A stretch of 64,000 nt of DNA from Saccharothrix saharensis (GTDB taxonomy: Bacteria; Actinomycetota; Actinomycetes; Mycobacteriales; Pseudonocardiaceae): positions 5,155,386-5,219,385 of the forward strand of contig NZ_VFPP01000001.1 of NCBI RefSeq assembly GCF_006716745.1. Direction: 5' to 3'. How positions within the stretch are numbered: position 1 is the stretch's first letter; every line of letters begins with the position of its first letter. Below are positions 1,667 to 26,330 of the stretch, in pieces. Made by a program: the position numbers and the translations under genes. The notes beneath the pieces are model-generated. The model made no database searches. It saw nothing but the letters and a program-made list of their open reading frames with translations, and was not told the DNA's origin.

Positions 1667-1762
1667 TACTCCTGGGTGCCTGTCCACCATCGCTACCTAC
1701 CGTCCGTGTCGAGCGGCGGGGCTTCGCCGCGAAACCCGCTTCCGTAGCTGGAGGACTCCCAG

Positions 1763-2884
1763 GTGAAGACCAAGCGACACGGCGCCGTACTCGGCCTGAT
1801 CGCGGCCGGTGCGCTTCTGCTCACCGCGTGTGGCAGCGACAACAACGCCCCCAGCGCCGGTTCCACGTCGGCGGCCGGCGACTCGTCGGTCCCCGTCGAG
1901 TGCGGTGGCAAGTCGAAGCTCAGCGCAGAGGGCTCTTCCGCGCAGCAGAACGCGATCGCCACGTTCATCCAGGCCTACCAGGCGAAGTGCCCGGGCTCGG
2001 ACCTCGCCTACAACGCCTCCGGCTCCGGCGCGGGCGTCAAGCAGTTCAACGCGGGCCAGGTCGACTTCGGTGGCTCCGACTCGCCGCTGTCGGAGAGCAA
2101 GGGCGAGGTCGCCGCGGCTGCCGAGCGCTGCAAGGGCAACCCCGCGTGGAACCTGCCGCTGGTCTTCGGCCCGGTCGCGCTGGGCTACAAGCTCGAGGGC
2201 GTCAACGACCTGGTCCTCAACGGCGAGGTGACCGCCAAGATCTTCAACGGCGGCATCAAGAAGTGGAACGACCCGGCCATCGCGGCGCTGAACAGCGGCG
2301 CGTCGCTGCCCGACAAGGACATCAAGGTCGTCTACCGCTCGGACGAGTCCGGCACGACCGACAACTTCCAGAAGTACCTGACCGCCGCCTCCAAGGGCGC
2401 GTGGACCCAGGGTGACGGCAAGCAGTTCAAGGGCGGCGTCGGCGAGGCCAAGGAGAAGTCCGCCGGTGTCGCGCAGGCCGCGGGTTCGGTCGACGGCGCC
2501 ATCACCTACGTCGAGCTGTCGTTCGCGCAGGACAACAAGCTGTCCCTGGCCAAGATCGACAACGGCTCCGGCCCGGTCGAGCTGACCAACGAGACGGTCG
2601 GCAAGGCCATCGACGGCGCCACCATCAAGGGCACCGGCAACGACCTGGTCCTCGACCTGAACTCGATCTACGGCTCCACCACCGCGGGCGCCTACCCGCT
2701 GCTGCTGGCCACCTACGAGATCGTCTGCTCCAAGGGCTACGACGCCGACACCGCGAAGGCCGTGAAGGCGTTCCTGACCGTCGCGGCGACGACTGGCCAG
2801 GACGGCCTGGCGGACGCGGGCTACGCTCCGCTGCCGAAGGCCTTCCAGGACAAGCTGCTGACCGCCGTCAAGGCCATCGCCTGA
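1763..2884 (+). CDS. pstS: phosphate ABC transporter substrate-binding lipoprotein PstS
   Basis: GTG start with GGAGGA SD. Signal peptide plus lipobox LLTACGS. PstS-family sequence ([22 protein letters not shown]). Confidence 0.9.
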
Positions 2885-2918
2885 CCAGGCCGACACGCGT
2901 CCCGGGAACGCCATCGCG

Positions 2919-3974
2919 ATGAACGACCGCACTGTGGCCCCGCGCCCCGCGGGCACCGGCACGACCGGTGCCCGCGGGGGCGTTCCGGCTGCTCGACCCG
3001 ACTCGGAGGCTCCGATTCCCCCGACCACGGAAGCCGACCAGAAGACCCACGTCCGGCCGGGTGACCGGATCTTCGCAGGCCTGGCCACGGGGTCGGGCAT
3101 CTTCATCGTGGTCCTGATCGCGGCGATCGGCGTCTTCCTGCTGCTCCAGGCCATCCCCTCGCTCGCGCTGGACAAGGTCAACTTCCTGACCAGCCGCGAG
3201 TGGTCCACCAGCGACGTCAACAACATGCGCTACGGCATCCTCGACCTGCTCCTGGTCACCGTGGTGTCGTCCGCGTTCGCGCTGGTCATCGCGATGCCGA
3301 TCGCCCTGGGCATCGCGCTGTTCCTCACCCAGTACGCGCCGCGCCGGCTCGCCCGGCCGTTCGCCTACATCATCGACCTGCTGGCCGCCGTGCCGTCGAT
3401 CATCTTCGGCCTGTGGGGCCTGCTCGTGCTCGGCCCGGTGCTCACCCCGATCGGCGAGTGGCTGACCTCGTCGCTCGGCTGGATCCCGCTGTTCGCCAAG
3501 GGCAACGTCAGCATCGAGCTCGGCGGCACCATCTTCACCGCCGGCATCGTGCTGGCCGTGATGATCCTGCCGATCATCACCGCCGTCAGCCGCGAGGTGT
3601 TCGACCGCACGCCGGTCACCCACGTGGAGGGCGCCATCGCGCTCGGCGCCACCAAGTGGGAGGTCGTGCGCACCACCGTGCTGCCGTTCGGCAAGGCGGG
3701 CTACGTCAGCGCCTCCATGCTCGGCCTCGGCCGCGCCCTGGGCGAGACGATCGCCTTGACGATCATCCTCAGCGGCACGGGCGCCGCGTTCGCGTGGAGC
3801 CTGTTCGACGGCGGCGCGACGTTCGCGTCCAAGATCGCGCTGGCCGCGCCCGAGTTCAACGACCCGCGCACGGCGGGCGCCTACATCGCCGCCGGCCTGG
3901 TGCTGTTCGTCCTCACCTTCGGCGTCAACGCCCTCGCCCGGTCCATCGTCGCCGGTCACAAGGAGTACGAATGA
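2919..3974 (+). CDS. pstC: phosphate ABC transporter permease PstC
   Basis: Multi-TM permease with EAA-like loop. Pro-rich N-terminal extension. Order pstS-C-A-B. Confidence 0.85.
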
Positions 3975-4885
3975 CGACCGACACGGCGGACCTGAACCGC
4001 CTCGCCACGCCGCCGACGTTCCAGAGCGTCAGCGGCACGCGCAAGCTCAAGAACGGCATCGCCACCGCGCTGGTCTACGGGGCGTTCCTCGTCGCGATCG
4101 TGCCCCTGATCTGGGTGCTGTGGGTCGTCATCCAGCGCGGCTTCCCGGTCGTGCTCGACGGCGACTGGTGGCAGAAGTCGCTGTCCGGCCTGCTGGGCCG
4201 CCAGCAGGGCGGCGGCGTCTACCACGCGATCTACGGCACCCTGGTCCAGGGCCTGGTGTGCGGCTTGCTGTCCGTGCCGATCGGCCTGTTCGTCGGCGTG
4301 TACCTGGTGGAGTACGGCGGCCGGTCCAAGCTGTCCAAGGCCACCACGTTCATGGTCGACATCCTGACCGGTGTGCCGTCCATCGTGGCCGCGCTGTTCA
4401 TCTACACGCTGTGGATCACCTACTTCGGCTTCGGCCGCAGCGGGTTCGCGGTGTCCCTCGCGCTGGTGCTGCTGATGGTGCCGGTGATCGTGCGGACCAC
4501 CGAGGAGATGCTGAAGATCGTGCCGGACGAGTTGCGCGAGGCGTCCTACGCGCTCGGCATCCCCAAGTGGAAGACGATCGTGAAGGTCGTCATCCCGACC
4601 GCGCTGTCCGGCATCATCACCGGCATCATGCTGGCCCTGGCCCGCGTCATGGGCGAGACCGCGCCGGTGCTCGTGCTGGCCGCGTACGCGCCCTACATCA
4701 ACTACAACCTGTTCGAAGGGCCGATGGCGTCGCTGCCGCTGCTCATGACGTCGGAGCGGAACAACCCGACGCAGGCCGGTTTCGAGCGGATCTGGGGTGC
4801 GGCGATCACCCTGGTCATCATCATCACGCTGTTCAACCTGCTGGCGACCGTGATCTCGCGGTGGCTGGCTCCGAAGACGAAGTGA
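3971..4885 (+). CDS. pstA: phosphate ABC transporter permease PstA
   Basis: ATG at 3971 overlaps the pstC stop (ATGA). MTTDTADLN... is a TM permease. The 561-aa ORF listed from 3200 is an out-of-context extension. Confidence 0.85.
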
Positions 4886-4895
4886 GCGGGCGGTC

Positions 4896-5672
4896 ATGGC
4901 CAAGCGCATCGACGTGAAAGACCTGAACCTGTACTACGGCAAGTTCCACGCCGTGGACGGTGTCTCGCTCGCCGTGCCGCCGAAGAACGTGACGGCGTTC
5001 ATCGGCCCGTCCGGCTGCGGGAAGTCCACCGTGCTGCGGTCGTTGAACCGCATGCACGAGGTGGCGCCCGGGGCGCGGGTGGAGGGCACCGTGCTGCTCG
5101 ACGGCGAGGACATCTACGCGTCCTCCGTCGACCCGGTGCAGGTGCGCCGGACCATCGGCATGGTGTTCCAGCGCCCCAACCCGTTCCCGACGATGTCCAT
5201 CCGGGACAACGTGGTGGCGGGCCTGAAGCTCGCGGGCGAGCGGAACAAGAAGAAGCTCGACGAGGTGGCCGAGCGGTCGTTGCGCGGGGCGAACCTGTGG
5301 AACGAGGTCAAGGACCGCCTCGACCGCCCCGGCGGCGGCCTGTCCGGCGGTCAGCAGCAGCGGCTGTGCATCGCGCGGGCGATCGCCGTGCAGCCGGACG
5401 TGCTGCTGATGGACGAGCCGTGCTCGGCGCTGGACCCCATCTCCACGCTCGCGATCGAGGACCTGATCACCGAGCTGAAGAAGGAGTACACGATCGTCAT
5501 CGTGACCCACAACATGCAGCAGGCGGCGCGGGTCAGCGACCAGACCGCGTTCTTCAACCTGTTGGGTGTCGGCCAGCCCGGTCGGCTGATCGAGGTGGAC
5601 GACACGGAGAAGATCTTCTCCAACCCGAGCCAGAAGGCGACCGAGGACTACATCTCGGGCCGTTTCGGCTGA
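4896..5672 (+). CDS. pstB: phosphate ABC transporter ATP-binding protein PstB
   Basis: Walker [10 protein letters not shown], signature [14 protein letters not shown], Walker [12 protein letters not shown]. 258 aa. Confidence 0.9.
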
Positions 5673-5687
5673 TCGCGCCCCGACCCC

Positions 5688-5720
5688 GGAAGCCCTCCCA
5701 CCTGCAGTGGGAGGGCTTCT
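5688..5720 (+). terminator. GC-rich stem-loop (14-bp stem) after pstB
   Basis: ggaagccctcccac-ctgca-gtgggagggcttct. No U-tract, as is usual for actinomycete terminators. Confidence 0.4.
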
Positions 5721-5806
5721 ACGCGTTCGGGTGACAGGGGGAACCGAGGCGCCGCCCCTACCGTCAAAATCGAGACACGGTCCTCCTTTCGGAGGTACCG
5801 TGACGG

Positions 5807-6238
5807 TTGGGATCGGCAGACTCGCAGGGGGTAACCGTGGCGGCGGAAGGTGCGTGGAGCGCACAGTCCATGCAAGCTATGACGGCCGGCATGGTGGGCT
5901 TGAAGCAGGCCGCCGAGTCCGGTTCGTTCGCCATCAGCCAGGACGGTGCGGAGGCGTACCTGAAGGCGATCGACCGCGCCGAGCAGGACCTCTTCAAGCT
6001 TGACCGCCAGGTGGGTCTGCTGCGCCAGGACGTCAAGCTCGGCACCAGTCCCGACGCTACTGCGCTGACGAGCTACAACCGTGAGAACGTCGAGGGTGGA
6101 GCAGGCACGTCCGGGATAGTGCCAGCGATCGAGCAGTTGCGGTCCGCGTTGAGCGAGGCACGTGAGGCGTTGCAGAAGGCGATCGAGAACTATCGTGAGG
6201 TCGACAGCTCGAACGCAAGCACCTATAAGCGCTACTGA
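5807..6238 (+). CDS. small all-helical protein with C-terminal YxxxD motif (PE/Esx-like T7SS substrate candidate)
   Basis: 133-143 aa, Ala/Glu-rich helical, ends ...ENYREVDSSNASTYKRY (YxxxD). Alternative GTG start at 5837. First gene of a co-directional, closely spaced cluster. Confidence 0.4.
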   Translation: MGSADSQGVTVAAEGAWSAQSMQAMTAGMVGLKQAAESGSFAISQDGAEAYLKAIDRAEQDLFKLDRQVGLLRQDVKLGTSPDATALTSYNRENVEGGAGTSGIVPAIEQLRSALSEAREALQKAIENYREVDSSNASTYKRY

Positions 6239-6250
6239 GGGTGGAAGCAG

Positions 6251-6793
6251 TTGATCAAGGGATTGTCGGTCCGCATCGTCTTGTCGCTGACGGTGCTCGG
6301 CGCCGTTGTCACCGGCTGCACCACCGGCGGAACGGCCACGCCGGGGTCGACCACCACATCGGGCACGACTGAGCAGACGGGGAAGGGCACCACCACGACG
6401 AAGCCTTCCGGTGGTGGTGACTCGCTCGCGGACTTCGACTCGTGCGAGGTTCTCAACTCTGTCGCGGCACAGCTCAACCTGACCGAAGTCGAGGAGGAGA
6501 GTCGCGGCGCGTGCGGTGCAGCGACCTCACCTGCCGGTGGCGTGTCGATCAAGGCTCAACCCGAGCTCGCCATCGCCGACGCGGTCGGCGATGGCAAGAA
6601 GTCCGATACCTCCATCGGTCCGCGCAAGGCCCGGCTCGTGGAGGCGCCGGGAACCAACACATCGTGCCTGGTCGCGGTTGAAGTCAGTCCGACGTCCAGG
6701 GTCGACGTCATCGCTTCCACCCGCTCGCTGGAATCCTCGTGCGAGTTGGCCACCAATGTGGCCACCGCCATCGAGCCGAAGCTGCCGAAGTAA
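6251..6793 (+). CDS. DUF3558-like secreted lipoprotein
   Basis: TTG start. Signal peptide and lipobox VVTGC. Thr/Gly-rich linker. Paired Cys residues typical of DUF3558. Confidence 0.5.
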   Translation: MIKGLSVRIVLSLTVLGAVVTGCTTGGTATPGSTTTSGTTEQTGKGTTTTKPSGGGDSLADFDSCEVLNSVAAQLNLTEVEEESRGACGAATSPAGGVSIKAQPELAIADAVGDGKKSDTSIGPRKARLVEAPGTNTSCLVAVEVSPTSRVDVIASTRSLESSCELATNVATAIEPKLPK

Positions 6794-6812
6794 CCCGAGG
6801 GGGGAGAACGTC

Positions 6813-8384
6813 GTGACGCCGCCGAACACGCAGCCGCCGTACGGGCCGCCGTCCAACTCGCTGCCGCCGCAGAGCAGCAACCAGGCGACCCAGGTCACCT
6901 ACGCGGGGCAGACCGAGGCCGAGTTGCGTGCCGAGTACGAGCGCGAGCGCGCCGCCAACCCGGGCATCTTCGGCGCCATCACGACGCTCGACGACTACCT
7001 GCGCTACAAGCAGCAGTCGGCGCAGTACCAGGCCACGCAGGAGCAGCAGCTGGAGCAGGTGGTCGAGAACTACCGCCCGCCGCTGTCCGCGCCCGGCTCG
7101 CACTACCTGTCCTGGGACCACAAGGCGCTCAAGGACATGGTCACCACGAACATGGCCCCGACCACCGCCAACGAGCAGGGCGAGGCCTGGACCAAGATCG
7201 GCAACACGCTGGCCGAGCTGCAGGCCAACCTGACCAGCGCCACGGCGGCCAGCAAGGGCGCCTGGCAGGGCGCGGCGGCGGAGTCGGCGCAGGGGTACTT
7301 CACCAACGTCGCCACCTGGTCGGGCAACGCGGCCCAGGGCGCGCAGCTCACCGGCAACAAGCTGTACGCCCAGAGCACGGCGGCCGAGCAGGCGAAGAAC
7401 GCGATGCCCGAGCCGGTCGAGTTCAGCACCGCCGACGCCTACAAGATGTTCTTCTCCGAGCCCAACCCGTTCAAGTGGGCCGAGACGATCGACCAGATCG
7501 AGCAGAAGTTCGAGGAGAAGCAGCAGGCCCACGAACGTGCGGCCGAGGTCATGACGACCATGTCCACGAGCTTCCAGGAGTCGGGCTCCACCATGCCCGC
7601 CTTCTCGCCGCCCCCGCCCATGGAGGGCTCCGGTGGCAGCGGTGACCCGGGGCAGCCCGGCACCGGCCAGATCGGCAGCCGGCCGACCGTGCCCAGCGGC
7701 AACGGGAACGGCACGGGCAGCGGCAGCGGGTTCGGCGACCTCGGCGTGCCCGGCGGTGGCGGCGGCACGGGCAGCGGCAGCGGCGGTGGCAACACCAACC
7801 AGTCCGGCTTGAACGGTCCCGGCGGCATCTCGACCCTGCCCGGCCCCGGTGGCGGTGGCGGCGGTGGTGGCGGCAACACGACCATCCCCGGTCCCGGCGG
7901 CGGCCCCTACCCGCCCGGCATCTACCCGCCGGGCACCGGGCCCAACCAGCGGCCGACGACCCCGCCCGGCGGACGTCCCCCGGGCATGCCGAACGGTCCC
8001 GGCCGGGGCCCCGGCGGTGGCCCCGGTGGCCGCGGCTTCGGCGGCGGCCCGGGCGGTGTGCCCGGTGGCGGTCCCGGTGGCATGGCGGCGGCCGGTCGCG
8101 GTGGCCTGGGTGGTTTCGGGCCCGGCGGCAGCGCGGGCACGCTCGGCGAGGCGGGCCGGTCCGGCGCGGGCGGCTTCGGGCCGGGCGGCAGCGGCGGCCT
8201 CGGTGGCGCGGGCGCGGCGGGTCGCGGCGGTGTGGGCGGCATGGGCGCCGGCGGCATGGGCGCCGGCGCCGGACGTGGTCAGGGCGAGGAGGACAAGGAG
8301 CACAAGGCCGCGTCCTACCTGGTGGAGACCGAGGACGTCTTCGGCGACGGCACGATGGTCGCTCCGCCGGTCATCGGCGGGTGA
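6813..8384 (+). CDS. WxG-motif / PPE-like helical N-domain protein with long Gly/Pro-rich low-complexity C-terminal region (T7SS substrate candidate)
   Basis: GTG start with GAGGGGGGAG SD. N-terminal ~270 aa helical with W-Q-G (..SKGAWQGAAAESAQGYF..). The ~250-aa G/P-rich tail ends in acidic EEDKEHKAASYLVETEDVF. The stop overlaps the start of the EspG-like gene. Confidence 0.5.
   Translation: MTPPNTQPPYGPPSNSLPPQSSNQATQVTYAGQTEAELRAEYERERAANPGIFGAITTLDDYLRYKQQSAQYQATQEQQLEQVVENYRPPLSAPGSHYLSWDHKALKDMVTTNMAPTTANEQGEAWTKIGNTLAELQANLTSATAASKGAWQGAAAESAQGYFTNVATWSGNAAQGAQLTGNKLYAQSTAAEQAKNAMPEPVEFSTADAYKMFFSEPNPFKWAETIDQIEQKFEEKQQAHERAAEVMTTMSTSFQESGSTMPAFSPPPPMEGSGGSGDPGQPGTGQIGSRPTVPSGNGNGTGSGSGFGDLGVPGGGGGTGSGSGGGNTNQSGLNGPGGISTLPGPGGGGGGGGGNTTIPGPGGGPYPPGIYPPGTGPNQRPTTPPGGRPPGMPNGPGRGPGGGPGGRGFGGGPGGVPGGGPGGMAAAGRGGLGGFGPGGSAGTLGEAGRSGAGGFGPGGSGGLGGAGAAGRGGVGGMGAGGMGAGAGRGQGEEDKEHKAASYLVETEDVFGDGTMVAPPVIGG
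7600..8300 (+). repeat. coding low-complexity Gly/Pro codon repeats (GGC/GGT/CCG/CCC runs)
   Basis: Reiterated GGxGSGSGG / PGGGPGG units inside CDS 6813-8384. Confidence 0.5.
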
Positions 8385-9178
8385 GCGTGTTCTCGTTCGC
8401 CCTGTCCTTCGCGGCGGCCGACATGCTCTGGGAAGACCTCAAGCTCGGCAGCCGCCCCTACCCGTTCGAATTCCCCTACCTCGGGCAGACGTTCGACGAG
8501 CGGCGCGGCATCCGCAACGCCGTCTACCGCGACCTGGAGTCGCGCGGCCTGGCCCACCGCGGCCGGGTCGCGCCCGAAGTGGCGGAAGCGCTCACCCTGC
8601 TGGTCCGCTTCGACTACTGCCTCACCGCGATCGCGTCCCTGGACGCGCGCAACGTCGAGCGCCAGATGCTGGCGCGCGGCGGCGCGGCCGGGGAGAACGC
8701 GGCGCTCGCCGTGATGGACGACCGGCAGATCAAGGTCGACGTGCTGCGCGCGCCCGGCCTGCTGCGCGCGATCGTGGACCTGGTCCCGCCGTCACGGCCC
8801 GGTCCCGGTCAGTCGATCACCGTGCCGGTGCCGTCGTCCGCGCCACCGCCGCCACCGCGCCGGGACGACGACTTCGGCAATGCCACGTTCACCCAGGCCA
8901 TGGCACCGCGCTCGTCGACGTCCACGCAGGTCCGCGCGTTGGAGGCGGTGTTCGAACGGCCGCGCCTGCGGGCCGGCCAGTTCGGCGTCACGGTCCGCGG
9001 CAGGCACGGCCGGGAGCAGCGCGCGCCGCAGGTCGCCTGGTTCGACAACGACCAGGGTCGCTACCTGTCGCAGACGCGGCAGGGGCCGGACGGCCAGAAG
9101 TGGCTCACCCACGCCCCCGCCGACAACGCGCGCATCGCCGCCCAGCTCTCGCAGGAGCTGAACGGCCTGCTCGCCTGA
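8381..9178 (+). CDS. EspG-like ESX secretion-associated chaperone
   Basis: N-terminus MSVFSFALSFAAADMLWEDLKLGSRPYPFEF fits the EspG signature (SxxExDxLWExLgLGxxP). 265 aa. GTGA-coupled to the upstream PPE-like gene. Confidence 0.55.
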   Translation: MSVFSFALSFAAADMLWEDLKLGSRPYPFEFPYLGQTFDERRGIRNAVYRDLESRGLAHRGRVAPEVAEALTLLVRFDYCLTAIASLDARNVERQMLARGGAAGENAALAVMDDRQIKVDVLRAPGLLRAIVDLVPPSRPGPGQSITVPVPSSAPPPPPRRDDDFGNATFTQAMAPRSSTSTQVRALEAVFERPRLRAGQFGVTVRGRHGREQRAPQVAWFDNDQGRYLSQTRQGPDGQKWLTHAPADNARIAAQLSQELNGLLA

Positions 9179-9181
9179 ACC

Positions 9182-9853
9182 TCAGGAGCCGTCCGCGGTG
9201 TCGGGGTGGTAGCCGGGCATCCGCCCGGTGACCACGAAGACGGTGCGCTTGGCGACCGACACGGCGTGGTCGGCGAACCGCTCGTAGAACCGGCCCAGCA
9301 GCGTGGTGTCGACGGCGGACGGCACGCCGTGCTGCCAGTCCTTGTCCATGATCACGGTGAACAGGTGCCGGTGCAGGTCGTCCATCGCGTCGTCGGCGTC
9401 CTCCAACGACCGGGCCCGCTGCACGTCCTGCGTGCGGATGATGTCGGTCGCCTCACGCGCCAGCTCGACCGCGATGCGGCCCATCTCGGCGAAGTACGGC
9501 CGCACCGTGTCCGGCAGCACCGGGTTGGGGTGCCTGCGGCGCGCGGCCTTGGCCACGTGCAGCGCCAGGTCGCCCATCCGCTCCACGCTCTCGGCCGCGT
9601 GGATCACCGCGAGCACGATGCGCAGGTCGGTCGCGACCGGCGCCTGCAGCGCCAGCAGCGCGTAGGCCTGCTCCTCGATGTCGGCGCGCACGTCGTCGAT
9701 CTTGGCGTCGTCGCCGATCACCTGCTCGGCCAGGGCCAGGTCGGCCCCGAGCAGGGAAGCGGTCGCGCGCTCCATCGCGTCACCGGCCATGCCGCACATG
9801 TCGGCGAGCTGGTCGGCGAGTTGTCCGAGCTGGTCGTGGTAGGCCTCACGCAT
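9182..9853 (-). CDS. phoU: phosphate transport system regulator PhoU (PhoY-like)
   Basis: 223 aa, two PhoU repeats. Positional equivalent of Mtb phoY2 next to the LCP gene. Confidence 0.85.
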
Positions 9854-9933: not shown

Positions 9934-12900
9934 CTAGGCGCAGGGGTCCTTCCCGGCGTTGACGACGGCCAGGTCCTCCGGCGGCGACGTCTTGCCCGGC
10001 TCGCCGCCCGCCGCCTGCGGTGCGCGGGTCTCCTCGTCCCAGCCGGGCCCGATCAGCAACTGCACCGCGCCGCCCATGTTCGCCTGGAACTGCAGCGTCG
10101 CGCCGGGCACCGAGGACTGCAGCGTCGCCGCCGCGTCCTCCGCGCCGATGCCGTACAGGATCACGGTCTTCTCGGCGGGCGGCGCGTCACCGGGGATGAC
10201 GACGTCGTAACCGAGTTCCCGCAACGCGTCCGTGGCCCGACGGGCCGCGCCGCCGTTGTCCGGGTCACCGTTGCGCACCTGGATCTTGATGCCCTTGTGG
10301 TCGATGATCCTGCCCTGCTTCGGACCCGGCGGCGGCGCGGACGCCTGCGTCGGCTGGGCCTGGTTCGGGTCGGCCGGGGTGTTGTCCGGCGTCTCCTCGG
10401 GCAGCGGCGTGCCGTCGATGATCGCCTGGAACAACGCCTTGGTGTCCGCTTCCTTCAACAGCTCCAGGTTGTCGTCGTTGGACAGCGTCTCGCCCTCGGA
10501 CGTCTCGTGCGGGATGGTGATGAAGGTGACCCGGCCCGCTTCGAGGCTGCGCAACGACTGCGCCAGCGTCAGCATGTCGTTCACGCCGATGTTCTGGCCG
10601 ACGGTCGAGGAGGCGAACGCGTTGAGGAACGCGTTGAGCTTGCCCGGGTTCAGCAGGATCTCCGACGACAACGCCTTGCGCAGCAACGAGGACAGGAACT
10701 GCTGCTGCCGGTTGACCCGGTCGTAGTCGGTCTTGTCCTCGCCCGAGACCTTGCGGGCGCGCACGTAATCCAGCGCCTTGGTGCCGTTGACCTCGAACCG
10801 GCCCGCCTGGTCGAAGATCACGCCGAGCTCGTCGTCCTTCATCGGCTTCGGCACGCACACCGGAACGGTGCCGATGGCGTCGACCATGCCCTTGAAGCCG
10901 TTGAAGTCGACGCTGATGAAGTGGTTGATCTCCAGGCCGGTCAGCTCGGTCATGAACTTGCTGACGCACTTGGGCCCGCCGACCGCGTACGGCTCGTTGG
11001 CCTTCACGTCCTCTTCGGCGTCGAGCTGCTCGCCGGTGTACTGGCCGGTGGAGGGATCCCACCGCTCGCACTGCGGGCGCTTGATGAGCAGGTCGCGCGG
11101 CACGGAGACGACGACCATGCGCTTACGGTCGGCGGGGATGTGCGCGAGCATCAGCACGTCCGAGCGCGCGCCCGGCTCGAAGTTGGCGTCGCCGACGCCG
11201 TCCTGCGGCTTGGCGCCCGCCCGGGTGTCCGAGCCGACGATGAGGAAGTTCTCGTCGCCGAGCTGCTTCTCCGCCTCGTGCACCGCGGCGGAGTTGGTGT
11301 TCAGCGCGTCGATCTCGGTGAACTTGCTGTCGATGTAGAACATCGCGCCCCAGCCGAGGCCGGTGGACACGAACACCAGCACCGCGGCGGCCAGCGACAC
11401 GACCTTGACCGTGCGCACGATCTTGCTGTGCTTGGCGGTGCGGCCGCGGCGGCGCGGGCCTTCGTCGTCGGGGGCGTCGACCGGTGAGGCGTACTCGGTG
11501 GCGTCCTCGTCGTGGTCGGCCTTCCACGGCATGAGCTTCTGGCGGCGTTCCTTGCGCAGGCGTTCCTGCTCGGCCAGCTCGTCGTGGACGGCGGAGAAGC
11601 GGGCCAGGGTGTGGTCGACCTCGCGACGTTTCTTGACGTCGTCGCTGATGGCCTCCATCTCCGTGGTGAGGCTGGCCGGGTCGATGGCCTCGCGCGGCTC
11701 GGGGCTCGCGCCGCCGCCGAGGCGGTCGGCGATGACGGGTGCCGCGTCGGGCACGACGACGTCGCCGTCGTCGGCGAACCTGCGACCGGTCACGTCACCG
11801 ACGGGCCGCGGGCCGCTGCCGTCCGCGGGACCGTCCGCGAGGCGACGCGGGCCGCTGCCGTCCACCGGGGGCACCGGCGGGCCGTCGGCGAGGCGGCGGG
11901 GACCGTCCACCGGGGGTGCGGGGGGTCCGTCGGCCAGGCGACGTGGGCCGTCGACCGGGGGTGCGGGTGGTCCGTCCGCCAGGCGACGGGGACCGTCGAC
12001 CGCGGGTGGGCCGTCGGCGAGCCGCCGAGGGCCGTCCACCGGTGGGCCGTCGGCCAGGCGGCGCGGGCCGTCGACCGGGGGTGCGGGAGGTCCGTCGGCG
12101 AGGCGGCGCGGGCCGTCGGGCGGCGCGATCGGGGGGGCCGGGGGTCCGTCGGCGAGCCGACGCGGGCCGCTGCCGTCGGGACGGCGGCCGACCGGGTCCT
12201 CACCGGGCGCACCGGGTGCCGGGCGGCGCGGGTCGGCGGGTGCTTCGGGGCGCGGTCGGCGGCCGGTGCCGGGTCCGCCGGTCAGGTCGTGCGGGCCGCT
12301 GCCGGTGGCCGGCGGGCCGGGGTGGGGCCGTCGGCCGGTGTGCTCACCGGGACGCGGCCCGTCCGCGAGCCGCCGCCCGGTGCCGTCGGCCGGCGCGCCT
12401 TCGGCGACCCGGCGTCCGGGCGGTGCGAGGTCGTCCGGCCGGCGGCGCGGTCCGCTGCCGTCGGGCACGCGCCGGGACGCGTCCGGGGCGAGGGCCTGCG
12501 GGCCTTCCGCCGGGCGGCGGGGCGCGTTCTCGGGCCGTTGACGGGGTCCGCTGCCGTCCGGCACGCGCCGTGGCGCGTCGGGAGCCAGGTCGTCGGGACG
12601 ACGGCGTTGCCCGGTGCTCTCGGCGACCCGGCCGGGGCCATCCGGTGTGAGGTCTTCGGGCCGGCGGCGCGGTCCGCTGCCGTCGGGCACGCGCCGGGAC
12701 GCGTCGGGGGCGAGGCCTTCCGGGCGGGGCGCGGCGGGGTCGGGGTGCCGTCGGCCGGGGTGCGGACGCCGGCCGGTGCCGTCGGCGGGCCGGGGCGGTG
12801 CGGCCGGGTCCTGCGGTGCGCGCGGGACGTCCGGGCCGGGGCGGCCGTTGGCGGGGATGCGCCTGCTCGGCTCGCCCGGCCGCGGTGCGAGGTCGTCCGG

Positions 12901-13377
12901 GCGGCCGGGGTGACCGTTCGGCGGGGGCGCGGTGCGGCCGGGACGTGCCGGGCCGGGCTCGTCGGGACGGCGGCGCGCGCCGGTGTCCTCCGGTACGGGG
13001 CGCGGCGTCCTGGTCCCGGTGCCCTCGCCCGCCGGGGCGAAGAAGTCGTTGGAGGGCGGCGCGGCCGGCGGCGGGGCCTGGCGGCGCGGCGGTTCCGGCG
13101 CGGCGCGGCGGCCGGTGCCCTCGGGGGCCTGGCGGCCGTTCTGGGGCGGCGCGGGTCTGCGTGGCGGCTCGGGCTCGGGCGCGGCGCGCCGGCCGGTGTC
13201 CGACGGACCGGGTGGGACCGGGCGGGGGATGTTCGTGCGGCTGTGCTGCTCCAGCAGGTCGGACACGCTCAGCCCGCCACCGTCCAGCGACCTGCGGCGA
13301 CGGCCGGTCGGCTGGTCGTCCTGCGGGGCCTGGTCACCTCCGGGTCCGGGGCCGCCACGGCGGGGCTCGTCGGGCAC
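9934..13377 (-). CDS. LytR-CpsA-Psr (LCP) family cell-wall glycopolymer transferase with ~620-aa Pro/Arg/Gly-rich repeat-containing cytoplasmic N-terminus
   Basis: One TM (VVSLAAAVLVFVSTGLGWGAMFYI), an LCP catalytic domain (FLIVGSDTR..SDVLMLAHI..VSVPRDL) and a C-terminal LytR_C domain. Positional equivalent of Mtb Rv0822c. Confidence 0.8.
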   Translation of the reverse strand: MPDEPRRGGPGPGGDQAPQDDQPTGRRRRSLDGGGLSVSDLLEQHSRTNIPRPVPPGPSDTGRRAAPEPEPPRRPAPPQNGRQAPEGTGRRAAPEPPRRQAPPPAAPPSNDFFAPAGEGTGTRTPRPVPEDTGARRRPDEPGPARPGRTAPPPNGHPGRPDDLAPRPGEPSRRIPANGRPGPDVPRAPQDPAAPPRPADGTGRRPHPGRRHPDPAAPRPEGLAPDASRRVPDGSGPRRRPEDLTPDGPGRVAESTGQRRRPDDLAPDAPRRVPDGSGPRQRPENAPRRPAEGPQALAPDASRRVPDGSGPRRRPDDLAPPGRRVAEGAPADGTGRRLADGPRPGEHTGRRPHPGPPATGSGPHDLTGGPGTGRRPRPEAPADPRRPAPGAPGEDPVGRRPDGSGPRRLADGPPAPPIAPPDGPRRLADGPPAPPVDGPRRLADGPPVDGPRRLADGPPAVDGPRRLADGPPAPPVDGPRRLADGPPAPPVDGPRRLADGPPVPPVDGSGPRRLADGPADGSGPRPVGDVTGRRFADDGDVVVPDAAPVIADRLGGGASPEPREAIDPASLTTEMEAISDDVKKRREVDHTLARFSAVHDELAEQERLRKERRQKLMPWKADHDEDATEYASPVDAPDDEGPRRRGRTAKHSKIVRTVKVVSLAAAVLVFVSTGLGWGAMFYIDSKFTEIDALNTNSAAVHEAEKQLGDENFLIVGSDTRAGAKPQDGVGDANFEPGARSDVLMLAHIPADRKRMVVVSVPRDLLIKRPQCERWDPSTGQYTGEQLDAEEDVKANEPYAVGGPKCVSKFMTELTGLEINHFISVDFNGFKGMVDAIGTVPVCVPKPMKDDELGVIFDQAGRFEVNGTKALDYVRARKVSGEDKTDYDRVNRQQQFLSSLLRKALSSEILLNPGKLNAFLNAFASSTVGQNIGVNDMLTLAQSLRSLEAGRVTFITIPHETSEGETLSNDDNLELLKEADTKALFQAIIDGTPLPEETPDNTPADPNQAQPTQASAPPPGPKQGRIIDHKGIKIQVRNGDPDNGGAARRATDALRELGYDVVIPGDAPPAEKTVILYGIGAEDAAATLQSSVPGATLQFQANMGGAVQLLIGPGWDEETRAPQAAGGEPGKTSPPEDLAVVNAGKDPCA
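11820..12180 (-). repeat. intragenic tandem repeat (~9 units of 30-45 bp) encoding (PPAPP)VDGPRRLADGP
   Basis: Visible as reiterated ggtccgtcggccaggcgacg.gggccgtcgaccggggg on the + strand. A second looser repeat block (PDGSGPRRRPDDLAPDA) lies at about 12390-12730. Confidence 0.6.
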
Positions 13378-17454: not shown

Positions 17455-17546
17455 GGCTCTCTGCTTATCGCCGCCCACCCCCACCCGCCACCGCGATCAC
17501 CCGTTCCGGTGGAATTCGCACCGGTCGGCGATGGGGGATGCGCGGT

Positions 17547-17589
17547 CGAGTTTGGTGGGCCGCCAGGGACTCGAACCCTGAACCCGAAG
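17547..17589. repeat. att-like direct repeat (partial 3' copy of tRNA-Lys)
   Basis: Identical to 26331-26373. Not a complete tRNA. Confidence 0.7.
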
Positions 17590-18053
17590 GTTGTAAATCT
17601 TGCTCGCTTGACGTCTGCCAATATTGTCCGTCGTCTGCTGCCACCTGCAGAATTTTCAATCGTGAACCGCCACTGTGTATAGATCGATGCGGTGCTCTAT
17701 CGTCGTTAGTTAGGGGTAACTGAGGGGCCTAACCCTGCTGCGGACATCGTCCGTCGCGTCCACTGCCTACCCTTTGACGTGTCGTCCACCTTCGTCTCGA
17801 CCTCTTAGATAGCAAGGTTATCGCTATCCGTTTTGTGATCAAACGACGATGAAGGTAGCTTGTGAACCACTGACCTGTGATGGTCTAGCGTAGGCGCGCA
17901 GTGGATATGAATCGTCCTCAAGTTGAAGACCGTGGATCTCTATCGACAAGTCTCGACAGTTCGTTACCAGGCGGGCGAATTGTTATGAGTTGTTGACAGT
18001 TCAAGCGTCTTGCCGAACACACGTTCGAATACGGGTAACGTGCTACACCCGAT

Positions 18054-20558
18054 GTGATGACATGTGTGCATCTGTGTGGCGATCTATCATTAAAGGTCAA
18101 TGAAAGCACAACCAGGGGAACGCCGTTGACCCAAGTATCAGAGCCCGGAAGTCCCGTAGCCTACGTACAGGTAGAGATTGATTATGCAATCTTGCAGCAC
18201 TTCTCGCAGCACCTGTACTCGTCGCCAAACAAGGCCGTCGAAGAGCTAGTCACTAATGGCTACGACGCATTGGCCATGAAGGTGAACGTCTTCCTTCCGG
18301 GATCCTCTGCTCGGGATTGCGTTCTTGTGTGGGATGACGGCGACTCCATGGATCTCGACGGAATACGTCAGTTGTGGTGGATTGCGCGCAGCCCAAAAAA
18401 CGATGGAACTGCGAGGGTCGCACGATCTGCTGCTCGGGGAATCGAAAGAGCAATGATCGGCAAGTTCGGCATCGGCAAGCTCGCAAGCTACGCTCTCGGG
18501 GACAGAATATCGCACCTTTGCCACCGAGAAGGCCGATACTACCTTATCGCAGTGTCGTATGGGCAGGCGCCGAAGACCGACCCTGGCGATGCGTCCCCCA
18601 GGAAGGGGTTCGAAGTCCCAGTCCTGGAGCTGTCCGAGGAAAGCGCTAAGACTTTCACCAAGAGTCTGTATAGGACGGTTCCTAGCAACTTTAATGAGCT
18701 GTGGTCTCAACCGTCATGGACGCTGGCTATTATCGACGAACTTAAGGAAGAAGTCAATCTTACTCCTGGCCGTTTGCGCTGGGTGCTGGGCAACGGCATG
18801 CCGAGCAGGCCAGATTTCAAGGCGTTTGTTAACCAGGTAGAGGTTACGCCCAAAATTGAGCAGGGAGCTCTAGCCACATGGGACGCCTCTGATAAAGGAA
18901 TCAAGGAGCGACTTAAAGCTGAGTGGGATGAGGCAAAGAAGGCAGGACGTGTCACGGGCGATATAGAATTTACCAAGAAGGGCGATCACCCTGTTGTGGT
19001 AATGCCACACCTTGGCGATGTCCGTTTGCGAGTTAAGCTATTCGATAGATCTCTGTTTCAGAAGGACCGATCCGAATCCGGAAGAAGTGAAGGCTTCTTC
19101 GTGATGGTTCGAGACCGTCTGCTGAACCCGGACGATCCGAAGCTTTTCTTGCACGACCCGTCGTACGGCGCGTTCAACCGGATGCAGATTTTCATTTGGG
19201 CTGATGGCCTAGATAGTGACCTTCTCGCCGACCGTGAACGTTTGCATCGTTTGGCACCAACTGGGGTAGAACTTGAAATATTACAAGTTGCCCTATATCG
19301 AGCCGGCCGCAATAAGCTAACTGCGACAGAATCTCACGCCAGGCTTGAGTCACGTGTAGCGGAACTCCCCATTATTGCTCGGGAGTACCTTAGGGATCCA
19401 CTTACAGCGCTGATTATGAACGAGCCGGGGGGTGATCTGACTGCCGTTAACCCTAGTGAAACTCGCATGACAATTGAAGCAAGAGGTTCGAAATCCCCTT
19501 TGTCTAGCCTAGACGTAGCGGAAAATCGCATCGTTACTAATATCGACCATCCGATGTACGTGACAATGCTGGAGACTTTTGGTCGCAGTAGAAGGAGTCA
19601 AGAGGCACAGAAGCTTGTAGAGATGTTCGCGGTGGCAGACCTTTTGCTCAAAGGCAGGCTCCTCGACCTCGGTGTCGACATCGACATCGTCGACAATGTA
19701 ATGAAATGGCGTGAAGCGCAATTGCGTTCGTTGCAAGCGGGCTTCAAGCAGAGCCCGGATGTAATTATTAAGGAAGTTATCGACACAAGCTACAAAGGTC
19801 ACAAGCCATTCGAACAGGCTTTGGCTAAGTTGTTCCAACTGATGGGTTTCTACGCTGAAATCGATGGCGCATCGGGCAAAAAAGATGTCTTGGTTATTGC
19901 ACCTGTCGGTGAAGAAGAGAAGCGATTCACCGTAGAAGCCAAAGGCTCGAAGAAGTCATTGGCGAACGACGACGCTGAAATCAGTGGCGCAGCCGCTCAT
20001 GCTATAGAGGTAGACGCTCTTTTTAGCGTCGTTGTTGCTCGTGAATTCGCGGGATTTGCGCGGCTACCCGAAGGCGAGGAGCCAGCCATCCTGAAGGAGT
20101 GCAGAGCGCAGAAAGTCGATGTATCAATCATCACGGTAGACGCGCTGGTTGATCTATATGAGGCGGTCAAGCGTCACCAATACCCTCTACCTATGATTTC
20201 TGATACGTTGGCCGAAATATGCTCCCCTGAAGAAAAAAGGCGTCGCATAGCGGAAATGCGTAACCCGCTTACAGCCAACTTTGATTGGCGTGACGTCTTC
20301 GATGAACTATGGAGCATGCAGCAGGGAACGGCTAGTAGAGAGCCGGTCTCTACCTTGGCACTTCGACAAGCACGGCCTGAGTGGAAAGCAATGTCCCGGG
20401 AGTCTTTTGACCAAGTGCTAGTTGGCCTTGACTCTCTGTCAGGTGGCCTACTGAAGGTTACAACGTCTCAGCACACGGTGAATCTGCTGCAAGCACCAGA
20501 TCTAGTCGCGGCAAGGATCGCTGCTTCTGTCGAAGGAAATCCGGATAAGAAGTCGTGA
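18054..20558 (+). CDS. GHKL-family ATPase (MORC/MutL-like Bergerat fold) fused to a C-terminal Mrr-like PD-(D/E)xK nuclease domain
   Basis: N-box ELVTNGYDA, G1 box DDGDSMDLDG, G2 box GKFGIGKLASYALG. C-terminal region FEQALAKLFQLMGFYAEIDGASGKKDVLVIAPVGEEEKRFTVEAKGSKK is arranged like the Mrr catalytic domain (D...ExK). Low-GC gene, 834 aa. Confidence 0.6.
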   Translation: MMTCVHLCGDLSLKVNESTTRGTPLTQVSEPGSPVAYVQVEIDYAILQHFSQHLYSSPNKAVEELVTNGYDALAMKVNVFLPGSSARDCVLVWDDGDSMDLDGIRQLWWIARSPKNDGTARVARSAARGIERAMIGKFGIGKLASYALGDRISHLCHREGRYYLIAVSYGQAPKTDPGDASPRKGFEVPVLELSEESAKTFTKSLYRTVPSNFNELWSQPSWTLAIIDELKEEVNLTPGRLRWVLGNGMPSRPDFKAFVNQVEVTPKIEQGALATWDASDKGIKERLKAEWDEAKKAGRVTGDIEFTKKGDHPVVVMPHLGDVRLRVKLFDRSLFQKDRSESGRSEGFFVMVRDRLLNPDDPKLFLHDPSYGAFNRMQIFIWADGLDSDLLADRERLHRLAPTGVELEILQVALYRAGRNKLTATESHARLESRVAELPIIAREYLRDPLTALIMNEPGGDLTAVNPSETRMTIEARGSKSPLSSLDVAENRIVTNIDHPMYVTMLETFGRSRRSQEAQKLVEMFAVADLLLKGRLLDLGVDIDIVDNVMKWREAQLRSLQAGFKQSPDVIIKEVIDTSYKGHKPFEQALAKLFQLMGFYAEIDGASGKKDVLVIAPVGEEEKRFTVEAKGSKKSLANDDAEISGAAAHAIEVDALFSVVVAREFAGFARLPEGEEPAILKECRAQKVDVSIITVDALVDLYEAVKRHQYPLPMISDTLAEICSPEEKRRRIAEMRNPLTANFDWRDVFDELWSMQQGTASREPVSTLALRQARPEWKAMSRESFDQVLVGLDSLSGGLLKVTTSQHTVNLLQAPDLVAARIAASVEGNPDKKS

Positions 20559-20614
20559 TACATCTGTTGCCACCTATGTGGTGGACTGCGTGACGATGAC
20601 GATAAGATCACGTA

Positions 20615-21673
20615 GTGACCGCTACAGCGCCTACCGCAGTTGACTTGTTCGCCGGAGCCGGAGGGGCAACTCAAGGACTCCGAGATGCTGGCTTCAACGT
20701 AGTAGGAGCTGTGGAGTTCGATCCAGAAGCGTCTCGGTCTTACCGTCTGAATCACCCAAGAACTCGGCTTTGGCAATCTGATATACGATCGTTGCCAGCA
20801 GAACGGATGCGCATTGAACTAGGCTTGCGCATTCGTGAACTGACTCTCTTGAAGGCATGCCCGCCGTGTCAGGGATTTTCATCCCTTGCGGGTGGGCGAA
20901 GCATGGATGAAACGCGTAATGATCTAGTTCACCAAGTGGTGCGGTTCACTAGGGCTTTCATGCCTAAGGCTATTCTGCTAGAAAATGTTCCAGGTTTGGC
21001 GCGTGATAGACGGTTTACTGAATTGACCGAGAAGCTGAGCAAGCTTGGATACTCGTTCGGTAGTTACAAATTGAATGCCACAGTCTTCGGTGTTCCTCAG
21101 CGCCGAAACCGATTGGTTGTTCTCGGCATTAGAAGCCGGAAGGCGGTTATCTCTTCCGATATTTGGGAGATTCTGGGTCAGGGTTATGCGCCTGTCGCTC
21201 TTACTGCAGGCGAGGCTTTGCAAAATTTGTACAGCTTGGCTCGCAAGAATGACCCGCTCAATCGTCATCGTTCACTGTCGAAATCTACTGCCGAACGAGT
21301 GAAGGCGATTCCAGTCGGTGGTACGCGATTTGACCTGCCTCCGGAGCATCGTCTCCGCTGCCATAACGAAGTGGACAGTAAGGGGGGGCATCGAGCAACA
21401 GCCTCATACGGTCGAGTAAAGCTCGACCTACCAGCACCTACTATGACGACGCGCTGTACGACGCCTGCATGTGGTTCTTTCATTCACCCTATTGAAAATC
21501 GCGGCCTGACCTTGCGCGAAGCGGCATACTTCCAAACTTTTCCCGTAACGTATGACTTTCTGGGCTCTTACGAGTCGATCGAGCGCCAGATAGGAAATGC
21601 TGTCCCAGTTGAAATGGCTAAATATCTCGGGATTGCTGTGCTTAAGTCAGTACGTAGGGCTCGGTTGCTCTAA
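20615..21673 (+). CDS. dcm: DNA (cytosine-5)-methyltransferase
   Basis: Motif I DLFAGAGG, motif IV PCQGFS, motif VI ENVPGL, C-terminal QIGNAVPV. 352 aa. Low GC. Confidence 0.85.
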   Translation: MTATAPTAVDLFAGAGGATQGLRDAGFNVVGAVEFDPEASRSYRLNHPRTRLWQSDIRSLPAERMRIELGLRIRELTLLKACPPCQGFSSLAGGRSMDETRNDLVHQVVRFTRAFMPKAILLENVPGLARDRRFTELTEKLSKLGYSFGSYKLNATVFGVPQRRNRLVVLGIRSRKAVISSDIWEILGQGYAPVALTAGEALQNLYSLARKNDPLNRHRSLSKSTAERVKAIPVGGTRFDLPPEHRLRCHNEVDSKGGHRATASYGRVKLDLPAPTMTTRCTTPACGSFIHPIENRGLTLREAAYFQTFPVTYDFLGSYESIERQIGNAVPVEMAKYLGIAVLKSVRRARLL

Positions 21674-22120
21674 TTGCACGTTGGCAAGGCTGTGGGCTGG
21701 TCGATGCCGTCAGGCGTCGAGCTGTCCACAGGCGCGGCAGCCGAGCGCCATAACCACGCGGCCGAGTCGACCACCGCGCGCTCGTCTCAAGCCCTGAGGC
21801 CGGAAGTATCGTCGTCGAGCAGATGGGTAGATCTGTTCAAGCGGTTCTCTGGGGGCACTGGCCGTGGCCTCCGGCTGTTGTGGGCAGGTTTCGGTGCCTC
21901 GCGTGTCGCGCCCGTGGGCCGCCAGGCCCACTTGGCGCGACCGAAGACATCGCCGGAGCCTGCCCACAACAGCCCGCAAGGGCACGAACGGCCAGCGGCC
22001 CCGGAGGGGGCCGCCTTGATGAAGAAAAGAAACTCTGAACACCGTGGTCAGGCTGCCTCGGTGTCCGCTGGAGTTGATGCCACTGTCGCGTGGTGGGCGG
22101 TGATGGCGTAGGAGTAGGGC

Positions 22121-22768
22121 ATGGTCGCTGCCGTGGTGTTTGACGTGGGTGAGACGTTGCTGGATGACTCGCGGGAGTGGGGGGCATGGGCGGATTGGAT
22201 CGGGGTGTCTCGGCACACGTTCTCGACGGTGCTCGGGGCGGTGACAGCGGCAGGGCGGGATAACGCGGAGACGTTCCAGTACTTCCGGCCTGGGTTCGAT
22301 GTGGCTCAAGAGCGGCAGCTTCGGGAGCGGGCTGGGGTGGGTGAGCGCATCGAGGATCGGGACTTGTACCCGGATGTGCGGATCGGGCTGGCTCGGCTGC
22401 GGGAGGTCGGGCTATGGGTTGGGGTGGCGGGGAACCAGACTGCTCGGGCGGCGGAGTTGCTGCGGGGGTTGAGGTTGCCGGTGGATGGGTTGGCGACGTC
22501 TGGTGAGTGGGGTGTGGCCAAGCCTGCGGCGGAGTTCTTCGAGCGGGTGGTGGGGATGACGCCTGCGGTGGTGGCTGGTGATGTGCTCTACGTCGGTGAT
22601 CACCGGGACAACGATGTTGTGGCGGCGAAGGCGGCTGGGTTGCGTACGGCGCTGATCCGGCGTGGACCTTGGGGATACCTGTGGGCGGATGACCCGTTGG
22701 TGCGTCGGGACGCCGACTGGGTCATCGACTCACTGCACGACCTGCCGGAGCTGCTGGCGAACGGCTGA
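22121..22768 (+). CDS. HAD-superfamily hydrolase
   Basis: Motif I VVFDVGETLLD, Lys motif VAKP, motif IV GDHRDND. Confidence 0.6.
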   Translation: MVAAVVFDVGETLLDDSREWGAWADWIGVSRHTFSTVLGAVTAAGRDNAETFQYFRPGFDVAQERQLRERAGVGERIEDRDLYPDVRIGLARLREVGLWVGVAGNQTARAAELLRGLRLPVDGLATSGEWGVAKPAAEFFERVVGMTPAVVAGDVLYVGDHRDNDVVAAKAAGLRTALIRRGPWGYLWADDPLVRRDADWVIDSLHDLPELLANG

Positions 22769-22779
22769 GGCGTAGCCGC

Positions 22780-24240: not shown

Positions 24241-24383
24241 CCCTTGGTCGAGCTGTGCCTACTTCGGAGTGTAACTCGCCGATTACGGTGCTGAGCTGCG
24301 GTTAGTGGTGACGGCGATCTTCGATCAGTCATTGGTATGGGATCGGCGTTGCGTCCGAGTGAATCTGGTCGAGCAAGTCCCAG

Positions 24384-24734
24384 GTGTACACGGAGGTCGA
24401 ACCCATGGGGATGTACTTGCTCTTCCAGCCGGAGGAGGACGCCGAGTCGGCGTTGGTGGAACGGGCACAGGGGCATCCGTCCCTGGTGATCGCGTCCGGT
24501 GACGCGCGGCTGACGGTGCAGATCGCTGGTCGTGAAGGTGGGGCGCAGCTCGCGATCAGGTTCGCGCGTGAGCTGGCCGAGTCGGCTGCGCAGTTCGCCG
24601 ACCGGTGCGAAGCCCTCACCAAGCTCGCACCGCTCGACTTCGAGCACTTGAGCGCTCTGGTGGGCGCGACGCCGGACGAGGTGAACGCGCTGACGGTCCC
24701 TGCCGGTGATGACGTGAAGGAAGTCGAGCGGTGA
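24384..24734 (+). CDS. hypothetical protein
   Basis: 116-aa ORF divergent from the XRE gene and overlapping the next ORF (ATGA). No recognisable domain. Confidence 0.3.
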   Translation: MYTEVEPMGMYLLFQPEEDAESALVERAQGHPSLVIASGDARLTVQIAGREGGAQLAIRFARELAESAAQFADRCEALTKLAPLDFEHLSALVGATPDEVNALTVPAGDDVKEVER

Positions 24735-26275: not shown

Positions 26276-26330
26276 ACGGGGGATCCGACTCCGCTGAACC
26301 CTGGTCCAACCGCTGGACCAGCGAGTTTGG

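Follow-up and report, generated by a model that had tools for sequence, protein, structure and literature searches.

Four genes stand between pstB and phoU in a 64,000-nucleotide stretch of Saccharothrix saharensis DNA (contig NZ_VFPP01000001.1, positions 5,155,386 to 5,219,385; hereafter the window, with a G+C content of about 70%), and the question this locus raises is what these genes are and whether they belong to the phosphate genes around them. The original prediction for this member of the Pseudonocardiaceae, made from the sequence letters, was an orphan module of type VII secretion system (T7SS) substrates with an EspG chaperone, placed between pstB and phoU. Our analysis agrees with this prediction in its main lines, on the basis of an EspG match, a PPE fold, a DUF3558 lipoprotein and a YxxxD export motif. 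We would put at roughly two in three the probability that the four genes, here called g1 to g4, are an operon of orphan substrates and chaperone under an extracytoplasmic function (ECF) sigma factor, serving an ESX-4-type T7SS encoded elsewhere and not forming part of the pst operon.

All four open reading frames (ORFs) are present on the + strand and, as originally described, are co-directional and tightly spaced: g1 (5837..6238), g2 (6251..6793), g3 (6813..8384) and g4 (8381..9178). The gaps are 12 nt between g1 and g2 and 19 nt between g2 and g3, and the predicted GTGA overlap of the g3 stop and the g4 start (4 nt) is seen in the sequence. A purine-rich ribosome-binding site precedes every one of the four; g1 starts with GTG behind AGGGGG, and g3 starts with GTG after GGGGGAG. 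Conservation of the N-terminus favours the GTG at 5837 as the g1 start over the listed TTG at 5807, which is improbable. Values of dN/dS lie between 0.18 and 0.6 for g1 to g4 versus 0.01-0.06 for pstB, so the four are real, fast-evolving genes under purifying selection. The genes are flanked by PstS, PstC, PstA and PstB (1748-5672; PstB matches TIGR00972 at 2e-115) and by PhoU on the - strand (9182-9853; TIGR02135, 3e-52). The convergent stop codons of g4 and phoU are just 3 nt apart (9176-9184), and there is therefore no space for terminators in between.

The g4 product matches the EspG family PF14011 at 230 bits (cut-off 27; E 4.3e-68) over profile positions 2-244 of 245, which upholds its assignment as an EspG-family chaperone. 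PF14011 is carried by all 93 of the 93 g4 homologues, from Saccharothrix, Actinosynnema, Umezawaea, Lentzea, Solihabitans, Actinokineospora, Kibdelosporangium, Actinophytocola and Actinocrispum, and those that have a name are called "ESX secretion-associated protein EspG" at NCBI. The gene adjoins g3, which encodes a PPE-fold protein, and is translationally coupled to it; by analogy with mycobacterial complexes, g4 would bind the PPE-fold domain of g3.

The 523-aa g3 product had been described as a WxG/PPE-like protein, and the predicted structure bears this out. When its AlphaFold2 model was compared to the PDB with Foldseek, the top nine matches were PPE41, PPE4 and PPE15 chains of PE-PPE-EspG complexes (template modelling (TM) score by target 0.70-0.82, probability 1.0), and the next matches were EspB structures with poor TM scores (0.3-0.44). 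The core of the model is predicted with a pLDDT of 79-92 and includes a PPE-like five-helix domain (aa ~96-258, 7098-7586), preceded by a 95-residue N-terminal extension (aa 1-95). Single-sequence searches of g1, g2, g3 and g4 against PDB sequences were uninformative and profiles were required; a profile of 15 diverse g3 N-terminal domains retrieved PPE4 (from PE5-PPE4-EspG3) over residues 18-175, a span of 158 residues, at E 1.2e-3, with WXG100 proteins after it. The 100% identical NCBI record is named "PPE-repeat protein", and many g3 orthologues (62-92% identical in the queried region) have a precomputed PF00823 match and carry the PPE name. The predicted WxG (7263-7271) was likewise found, with W151 and G153 invariant in 21 sequences, in the turn between two long helices (H116-147 and H154-197). 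The tip of helices 4 and 5 is a conserved MFFSEPNPF loop with an invariant P219, which, by analogy with the same complexes, is the expected EspG-binding site. Behind the domain comes the Gly/Pro-rich tail that had been predicted, about 230 residues long (7605-8282), followed by a conserved C-terminal motif, EDKEHKAASYLVETEDVFGDGTMVAPPVIGG (8286-8381). This motif, of the form EDxEHxxxxYLxE..D..F..D...APPVIG, spans about 32 residues and is near-invariant even at about 30% identity and across genera; it corresponds to no Pfam family, and tblastn returned no plasmid match for it.

The first gene encodes a 133-aa helical protein whose C-terminus reads ...ENYREVDSSNASTYKRY. Its export motif stands as predicted: Y119 (6191-6193) and D123 (6203-6205) are invariant across 23 close homologues, and a YxxxD/E lies within the last 30 residues of 123 of the 140 distant homologues. 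The claim that the protein is PE-like did not hold. No match to PF00934 was obtained for g1 (E<=1) or for 121 relatives (E<=0.01), and the AlphaFold2 model (pLDDT 91) predicts four helices, not the two-helix PE hairpin, with no specific fold match. An exhaustive profile search defined the family as 226 clusters, mostly of 110-180-residue proteins; it has no Pfam model, and the cluster records of its distant relatives read solely "hypothetical protein". Against the PDB, the g1 profile gave weak matches on the C-terminal helix (T. curvata EsxB, E 0.076; PE25, E 0.53, last helix). There was no match of g1 to PF10824 (EspC), TIGR03930 (WXG100) reached 14.7 bits on the C-terminal helix against a cut-off of 44.85, and g1 has no WxG. 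Among the 121 relatives, EspC matched 3 and WXG100 matched 2, all weakly, and the protein at the g1 position in S. syringae matched PF10824 over nearly its full length at E 2.9e-4 (21.7 bits; cut-off 23.5). From its sequence, g1 is most aptly placed in an unnamed YxxxD/E family that appears distantly EspC/WXG100-like.

The second gene fits the DUF3558 lipoprotein that had been proposed, for which we looked for a full-length model match in an actinobacterial lipoprotein of 177-195 aa. The 180-aa g2 product matches PF12079 over profile positions 1-172 of 173 (E 7e-8), with a score of 33.0 bits that is slightly under the 34.1 cut-off, and has a VTGC lipobox with Cys23 at 6317-6319. PF12079 is also carried by a 44%-identity g2 paralogue and by the positional equivalents of g2 at other loci. 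Four additional cysteines are conserved in the paralogues, which together with the lipoprotein signal suggests two disulfides and an extracytoplasmic location.

Between pstB and g1 lie a hairpin and a candidate promoter. The hairpin (5688..5720, +) has a 14-bp G+C-rich stem without a U tract, a predicted folding energy of -39.1 kcal/mol (z -5.3), and is maintained via compensatory changes in orthologous loci; we read it as the terminator of pstB. Downstream, at 5740..5768 on the + strand, GGAACC (5740-5745) and CGTCAAA (5762-5768) are separated by 16 nt. An alignment of 22 orthologous intergenic regions shows both boxes to be invariant and the spacer to vary freely, as one would expect of a true -35/-10 pair. 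The window holds a single exact match to the motif (0.01 expected). Each 20-kb orthologous locus likewise has one, in every case upstream of g1, or two where g1 is duplicated; with a looser motif, 29 of 37 matches in 729 kb were directly upstream of a cassette. The cassette of Solihabitans fulvus is preceded by GGAACC-N16-CGTCATA, that of Actinocrispum wychmicini by the same boxes with N17, and a lone g1-DUF3558 pair (L037) by GGAACC with N16-CGTCGAT. Going by this sequence pattern, GGAACC-N16/17-CGTCA(A/T)A is the predicted ECF-sigma-type promoter of the cassette. A scan of 5600-9400 for consensus sigma-70 promoters and terminators found nothing; the hairpin has no U tract, and the predicted promoter is of ECF type. 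Further down, a 5'-UTR hairpin at 5776-5802 was not significant (z -1.5). We additionally observed a conserved GGTAC(C/G/T)GTG box (5793-5802 in the window), about 30 nt downstream of the -10, in the leaders of four genera including those of Actinokineospora auranticolor, S. fulvus and A. wychmicini; it could be a second (TANNNT-type) -10 or a regulatory site.

The -35 sequence, GGAACC(G/A), agrees with the GGAACCG reported for SigM of Mycobacterium abscessus, a comparison that concerns the -35 box alone. The M. abscessus SigM regulon is centred on ESX-4 substrates and includes six DUF3558 genes, three PE-DUF3558-PPE operons (Mab_0012c-0010c, Mab_1828-1830 and Mab_1896c-1895c), one PE-PPE-EspG operon (Mab_0149c-0147c) and toxin-like genes (PMC13491425, 2026). 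We count these operons as support for our reading, as well as the ESX-4-type clusters of other Pseudonocardiales: Newton-Foot et al. reported that non-mycolate actinobacteria have ESX-4-type clusters only, with two in Saccharopolyspora erythraea (PMC4791881), and an Amycolatopsis genome paper reports eccB, eccC, eccD and mycP (PMC11004387).

To see how widely the cassette occurs, window proteins were compared to 31 related loci using tblastn. The cassette is conserved in about 25 Saccharothrix and Actinosynnema genomes, and the order pstB-g1-g2-g3-g4-phoU is found in every genome of these genera with a contig spanning the site except that of A. pretiosum (L030), which has PPE-EspG alone, with g1 and g2 missing. 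Identities to the window are 95-100% for PstB, 63-96% for EspG, 60-83% for g1, 54-97% for the g3 N-domain and 41-80% for g2. Taking as the recurrent order a small YxxxD/E protein, DUF3558, a PPE-like protein of about 440-560 residues with an APP(V/T)IG end, and EspG, we find the four genes in at least five Pseudonocardiaceae genera, beside the pst genes as well as in unrelated surroundings. S. fulvus (L038) has the four-gene cassette at the pst-phoU site, S. syringae (L036) and A. wychmicini (L039) have it at sites unrelated to pst, and A. auranticolor (L035) has DUF3558-PPE-EspG at the pst-phoU site without g1. S. coeruleofusca has two stand-alone g1-DUF3558 pairs (L033, L037).

These comparisons confirm the originally proposed insertion between pstB and phoU as to its position, but not as a recent event. 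The site is the same in Saccharothrix, Actinosynnema, Actinokineospora and Solihabitans, and because it is shared across genera and the same cassettes occur at unrelated sites, the insertion is old. G+C at third codon positions (GC3) is 0.81-0.82 in g1 and g2 and 0.95-0.99 in g3, g4 and the flanking genes; recent horizontal acquisition is ruled out by the host-like GC3 of g3 and g4 and by the conservation of the site across genera. As a separate observation, g1 and g2 have a dS 2-4 times as high as pstB and g4 have in the same genome pairs. The low GC3 and high dS of g1 and g2 suggest weaker codon bias or exchange with paralogous g1-DUF3558 pairs.

Extra copies were also seen between pstB and the cassette in some loci. 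Some Actinosynnema/Saccharothrix genomes (L025, at 6267 and 7431; L021 and L028, at about 6570-7180) have there either an additional g1 with its own promoter copy or an additional DUF3558 gene. These copies point to local duplication of the g1-DUF3558 sub-module.

Since g1-DUF3558 and PPE-EspG are also found separately, the cassette consists of two close pairs that in most cases occur together. This raises the possibility, which we consider the most serious alternative though distinctly less probable than our own reading, that two independent two-gene modules merely stand side by side, one of g1 and the DUF3558 protein (for example a secreted ligand and its membrane receptor) and one of the PPE-like protein and EspG, with g1 not the partner of g3 and the g3 N-terminal extension replacing a PE partner. 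The lone g1-DUF3558 pairs, the extra copies, and the PPE-EspG genes of A. pretiosum and A. auranticolor that lack g1 all speak for it, as does the low GC3 and high dS that g1 and g2 share, unlike g3 and g4. So do the helical modelling of the g3 extension and the presence of EspB, a fused PE-PPE protein, among the fold matches of g3. Nevertheless, the extension is modelled with low confidence (pLDDT 56-65), at least five genera keep the full four-gene order, also in unrelated surroundings, and M. abscessus has the same order of small protein, DUF3558 and PPE. Furthermore, no conserved YxxxD/E is present in g3, which would therefore lack half of the export signal if it acted alone.

We would like to note that several further results weigh against the reading of the cassette as a single substrate/chaperone operon. 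The occurrence of g1-DUF3558 without PPE or EspG (L033, L037), and of PPE-EspG without g1 (L035, L030), means that a g1-g3 heterodimer is not obligatory, and the pairing of the two proteins, which we infer, is weakened by it. The g1 protein is not a PE protein and gave no specific structural match, and the g1-family and g3-family profiles are unrelated when compared with hhalign. The g3 product itself scores 23.2 bits against Pfam PPE (PF00823; E 7.9e-5), below the 26-bit gathering threshold, and has no Pro-Pro-Glu; the region upstream of the equivalent of PPE4 residue 18 reads ...YLSWDHKALKDMV. No recognisable promoter copy was found at L035 and L036, and the SigM-like assignment is weak because GGAAC...CGTC is generic to many ECF sigma factors. 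Finally, as the original prediction had said, there is no ESX core gene in the window, a Pfam scan of approximately 35 of its ORFs having returned zero T7SS core families, and the core is presumed to lie elsewhere in the genome.

Two other explanations appear improbable to us, and to about the same degree. In the first, the cassette would be a polymorphic-toxin-type system with g3 as effector, g2 as extracytoplasmic immunity protein, and g1 and EspG as targeting factors or chaperones, like the Lap/WXG proteins of LXG toxins. The g2 gene is indeed the fastest-evolving of the four (41-80% identity, dN/dS up to 0.6) and is duplicated at some loci, as is often the case for immunity genes; the fold of g1 bears a weak, non-significant resemblance to Lap proteins of the TelA-LXG complex; and the SigM regulon of M. 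abscessus has its toxin-like genes. However, a Pfam scan of g3 gave nothing beyond PPE and no recognisable toxin domain, and what follows the PPE domain is low-complexity Gly/Pro sequence and the near-invariant motif of some 32 residues, the reverse of what the tip of a polymorphic toxin would look like. In the second, the products would be non-secreted cytoplasmic or structural helical and Gly-rich proteins, with an EspG homologue in a different role. This would agree with the lack of signal peptides on g1, g3 and g4 and of a T7SS core in the window, but WxG, YxxxD/E, a PPE fold and a neighbouring EspG gene together define T7SS substrates, and the operon partner g2 is an exported lipoprotein.

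A further possibility is that g1 to g4 belong in function to the Pst/PhoU system, share a transcript with pstSCAB and are involved in phosphate scavenging or sensing. In its favour are a pstB-phoU position conserved across four genera and, in M. tuberculosis, the control that Pst/SenX3-RegX3 reportedly exerts over ESX-5 secretion (Elliott and Tischler, 2016). It is nevertheless unlikely, because of the strong conserved hairpin after pstB, the cassette's own conserved promoter and the copies of cassette or promoter at non-phosphate loci (L036, L037 and L039, of which L036 is without a recognisable promoter). Inspection of the alignment by eye, with no formal scan made, also revealed no direct repeats resembling a PHO box.

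Returning to the reading of g1 to g4 as an ECF-controlled substrate/chaperone operon, the parts could work together as follows. An ECF sigma factor, possibly SigM-like, would switch on g1-g2-g3-g4 as a single transcript from the GGAACC-N16-CGTCAAA promoter. By comparison with the structures of mycobacterial PE-PPE-EspG complexes, g4 would then bind the hydrophobic helix-4/5 tip of g3 (MFFSEPNPF), keep g3 soluble, and deliver it to an ESX-4-type T7SS encoded elsewhere. The WxG turn of g3 and the YxxxD of g1 may form a bipartite T7SS export signal; both motifs are present, and their pairing is the putative step. Meanwhile, g2 would be exported by Sec, lipidated and placed on the outer face of the membrane, where it might receive, anchor or help to mature the secreted proteins. 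More speculatively, the Gly/Pro-rich tail of g3 could be an extended, wall-spanning linker ending in ...APPVIG. Secretion of g1 and g3, EspG-PPE binding, the role of the DUF3558 protein and the identity of the sigma factor are thus all put forward here as predictions.

PE/PPE proteins and EspG generally pass for innovations of mycobacteria, linked with the mycomembrane and with ESX-1/2/3/5. As judged from the sequences compared here, a PPE/EspG substrate-chaperone system appears to be present also in soil actinomycetes without a mycomembrane. No description of EspG/PPE cassettes in Pseudonocardiaceae was found in the literature searched, and database annotations already use the names EspG and PPE; what is new relative to that literature is the non-mycolate host, the non-PE partner family, the unusual PPE architecture and the dedicated ECF promoter. 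A complete cassette in non-mycolate genera places the origin of the PPE/EspG pair further back, nearer to ESX-4-type systems. Going further, and only tentatively, the cassette may mark an ancestral ECF (SigM-like)-driven ESX-4 effector regulon common to mycobacteria and Pseudonocardiaceae, with PPE/EspG and DUF3558 predating the mycomembrane and the ESX-1/2/3/5 expansions; we regard this as possible but doubtful. If true, it would contradict the proposal of Newton-Foot et al. that espG, pe and ppe are later, plasmid-borne additions within the Mycolata (PMC4791881), and the first YxxxD/E partner would have come from the unnamed g1 family, with PE taking its place afterwards.

With few paralogues and a non-pathogenic host, the cassette is also a simple genetic system for studying the role of DUF3558 lipoproteins, which are also found beside ESX-4 effectors in M. 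abscessus, the hand-over from EspG to a minimal T7SS, and the signal that induces an ECF-controlled effector regulon. The conserved promoter motif provides a direct means to enumerate the regulon in any Pseudonocardiaceae genome.

The rest of the window contains several features apart from the cassette. Upstream of the pst genes are GlnR (1-594) and a GNAT acetyltransferase (636-1568). Downstream of phoU is a large LCP protein (9934-13377, -) with LytR-CpsA-Psr and LytR_C domains, followed by a GGDEF protein and Dus. The N-terminal half of the LCP protein, about 560 residues, is Pro/Arg/Gly-rich with tandem "PPVDGPRRLADGP" repeats and a local GC of up to 0.86; the gene at this position encodes 996 aa in Solihabitans and 1551 aa in Actinokineospora, with no Pfam match on record. 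Within 17500-26400 there is a 4-kb low-GC island (GC 0.50-0.54 versus a background of about 0.70) encoding an 834-aa HATPase_c_3 protein (18054-20558) with a weak PADLOC match to a type II restriction endonuclease, and a C-5 cytosine DNA methylase (20615-21673); farther along come a fragment of a phage integrase (25661-26275) and a tRNA (26331-26403, -). The 17500-26400 region is probably an integrated island with a restriction-modification-like system. A three-gene run at 28988-37870 (+) encodes a 450-aa protein without an assigned family, a 915-aa SPFH/Band-7 protein and, third, a 1669-aa ATPase with DUF3686, DUF7902 and AAA ATPase domains ("ATPase involved in DNA repair").

Of the known systems, the M. 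abscessus SigM/ESX-4 operons resemble the S. saharensis cassette in gene order and -35 box. In both, a small YxxxD/E protein, DUF3558 and PPE follow one another in orphan modules away from an esx core, behind an ECF-type -35 GGAACC(G), and in one M. abscessus operon an EspG-like gene follows PPE; unlike these operons, S. saharensis has all four genes in one cassette and belongs to the Pseudonocardiaceae. The mycobacterial PE-PPE-EspG triads (PE25-PPE41-EspG5, PE5-PPE4-EspG3 and PE8-PPE15-EspG5) likewise have EspG coupled directly downstream of a WxG PPE-fold gene, a small helical protein with a C-terminal YxxxD/E upstream, and a long low-complexity PPE C-terminus. In contrast to the triads, g1 is not PE (no hidden Markov model match, four predicted helices, 133 aa), g3 has no Pro-Pro-Glu, a 95-residue N-terminal extension and an ...EDxEHxxxxYLxE...F..D...APPVIG end, and the cassette lies outside any esx locus; its host is non-mycolate and there is therefore no mycomembrane to cross. 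EspC/EspA-type ESX-1 substrates (PF10824) and WXG100 proteins share with g1 a small size, helical structure and C-terminal YxxxD/E, but all g1-family scores fall under the curated thresholds and g1 is without WxG. Lastly, EspB, the fused PE-PPE substrate of ESX-1, combines a helical N-terminal part with a long low-complexity C-terminal region as g3 does; its TM scores to g3 are poor (0.3-0.44), g3 has no YxxxD/E of its own, and EspB does not use EspG.

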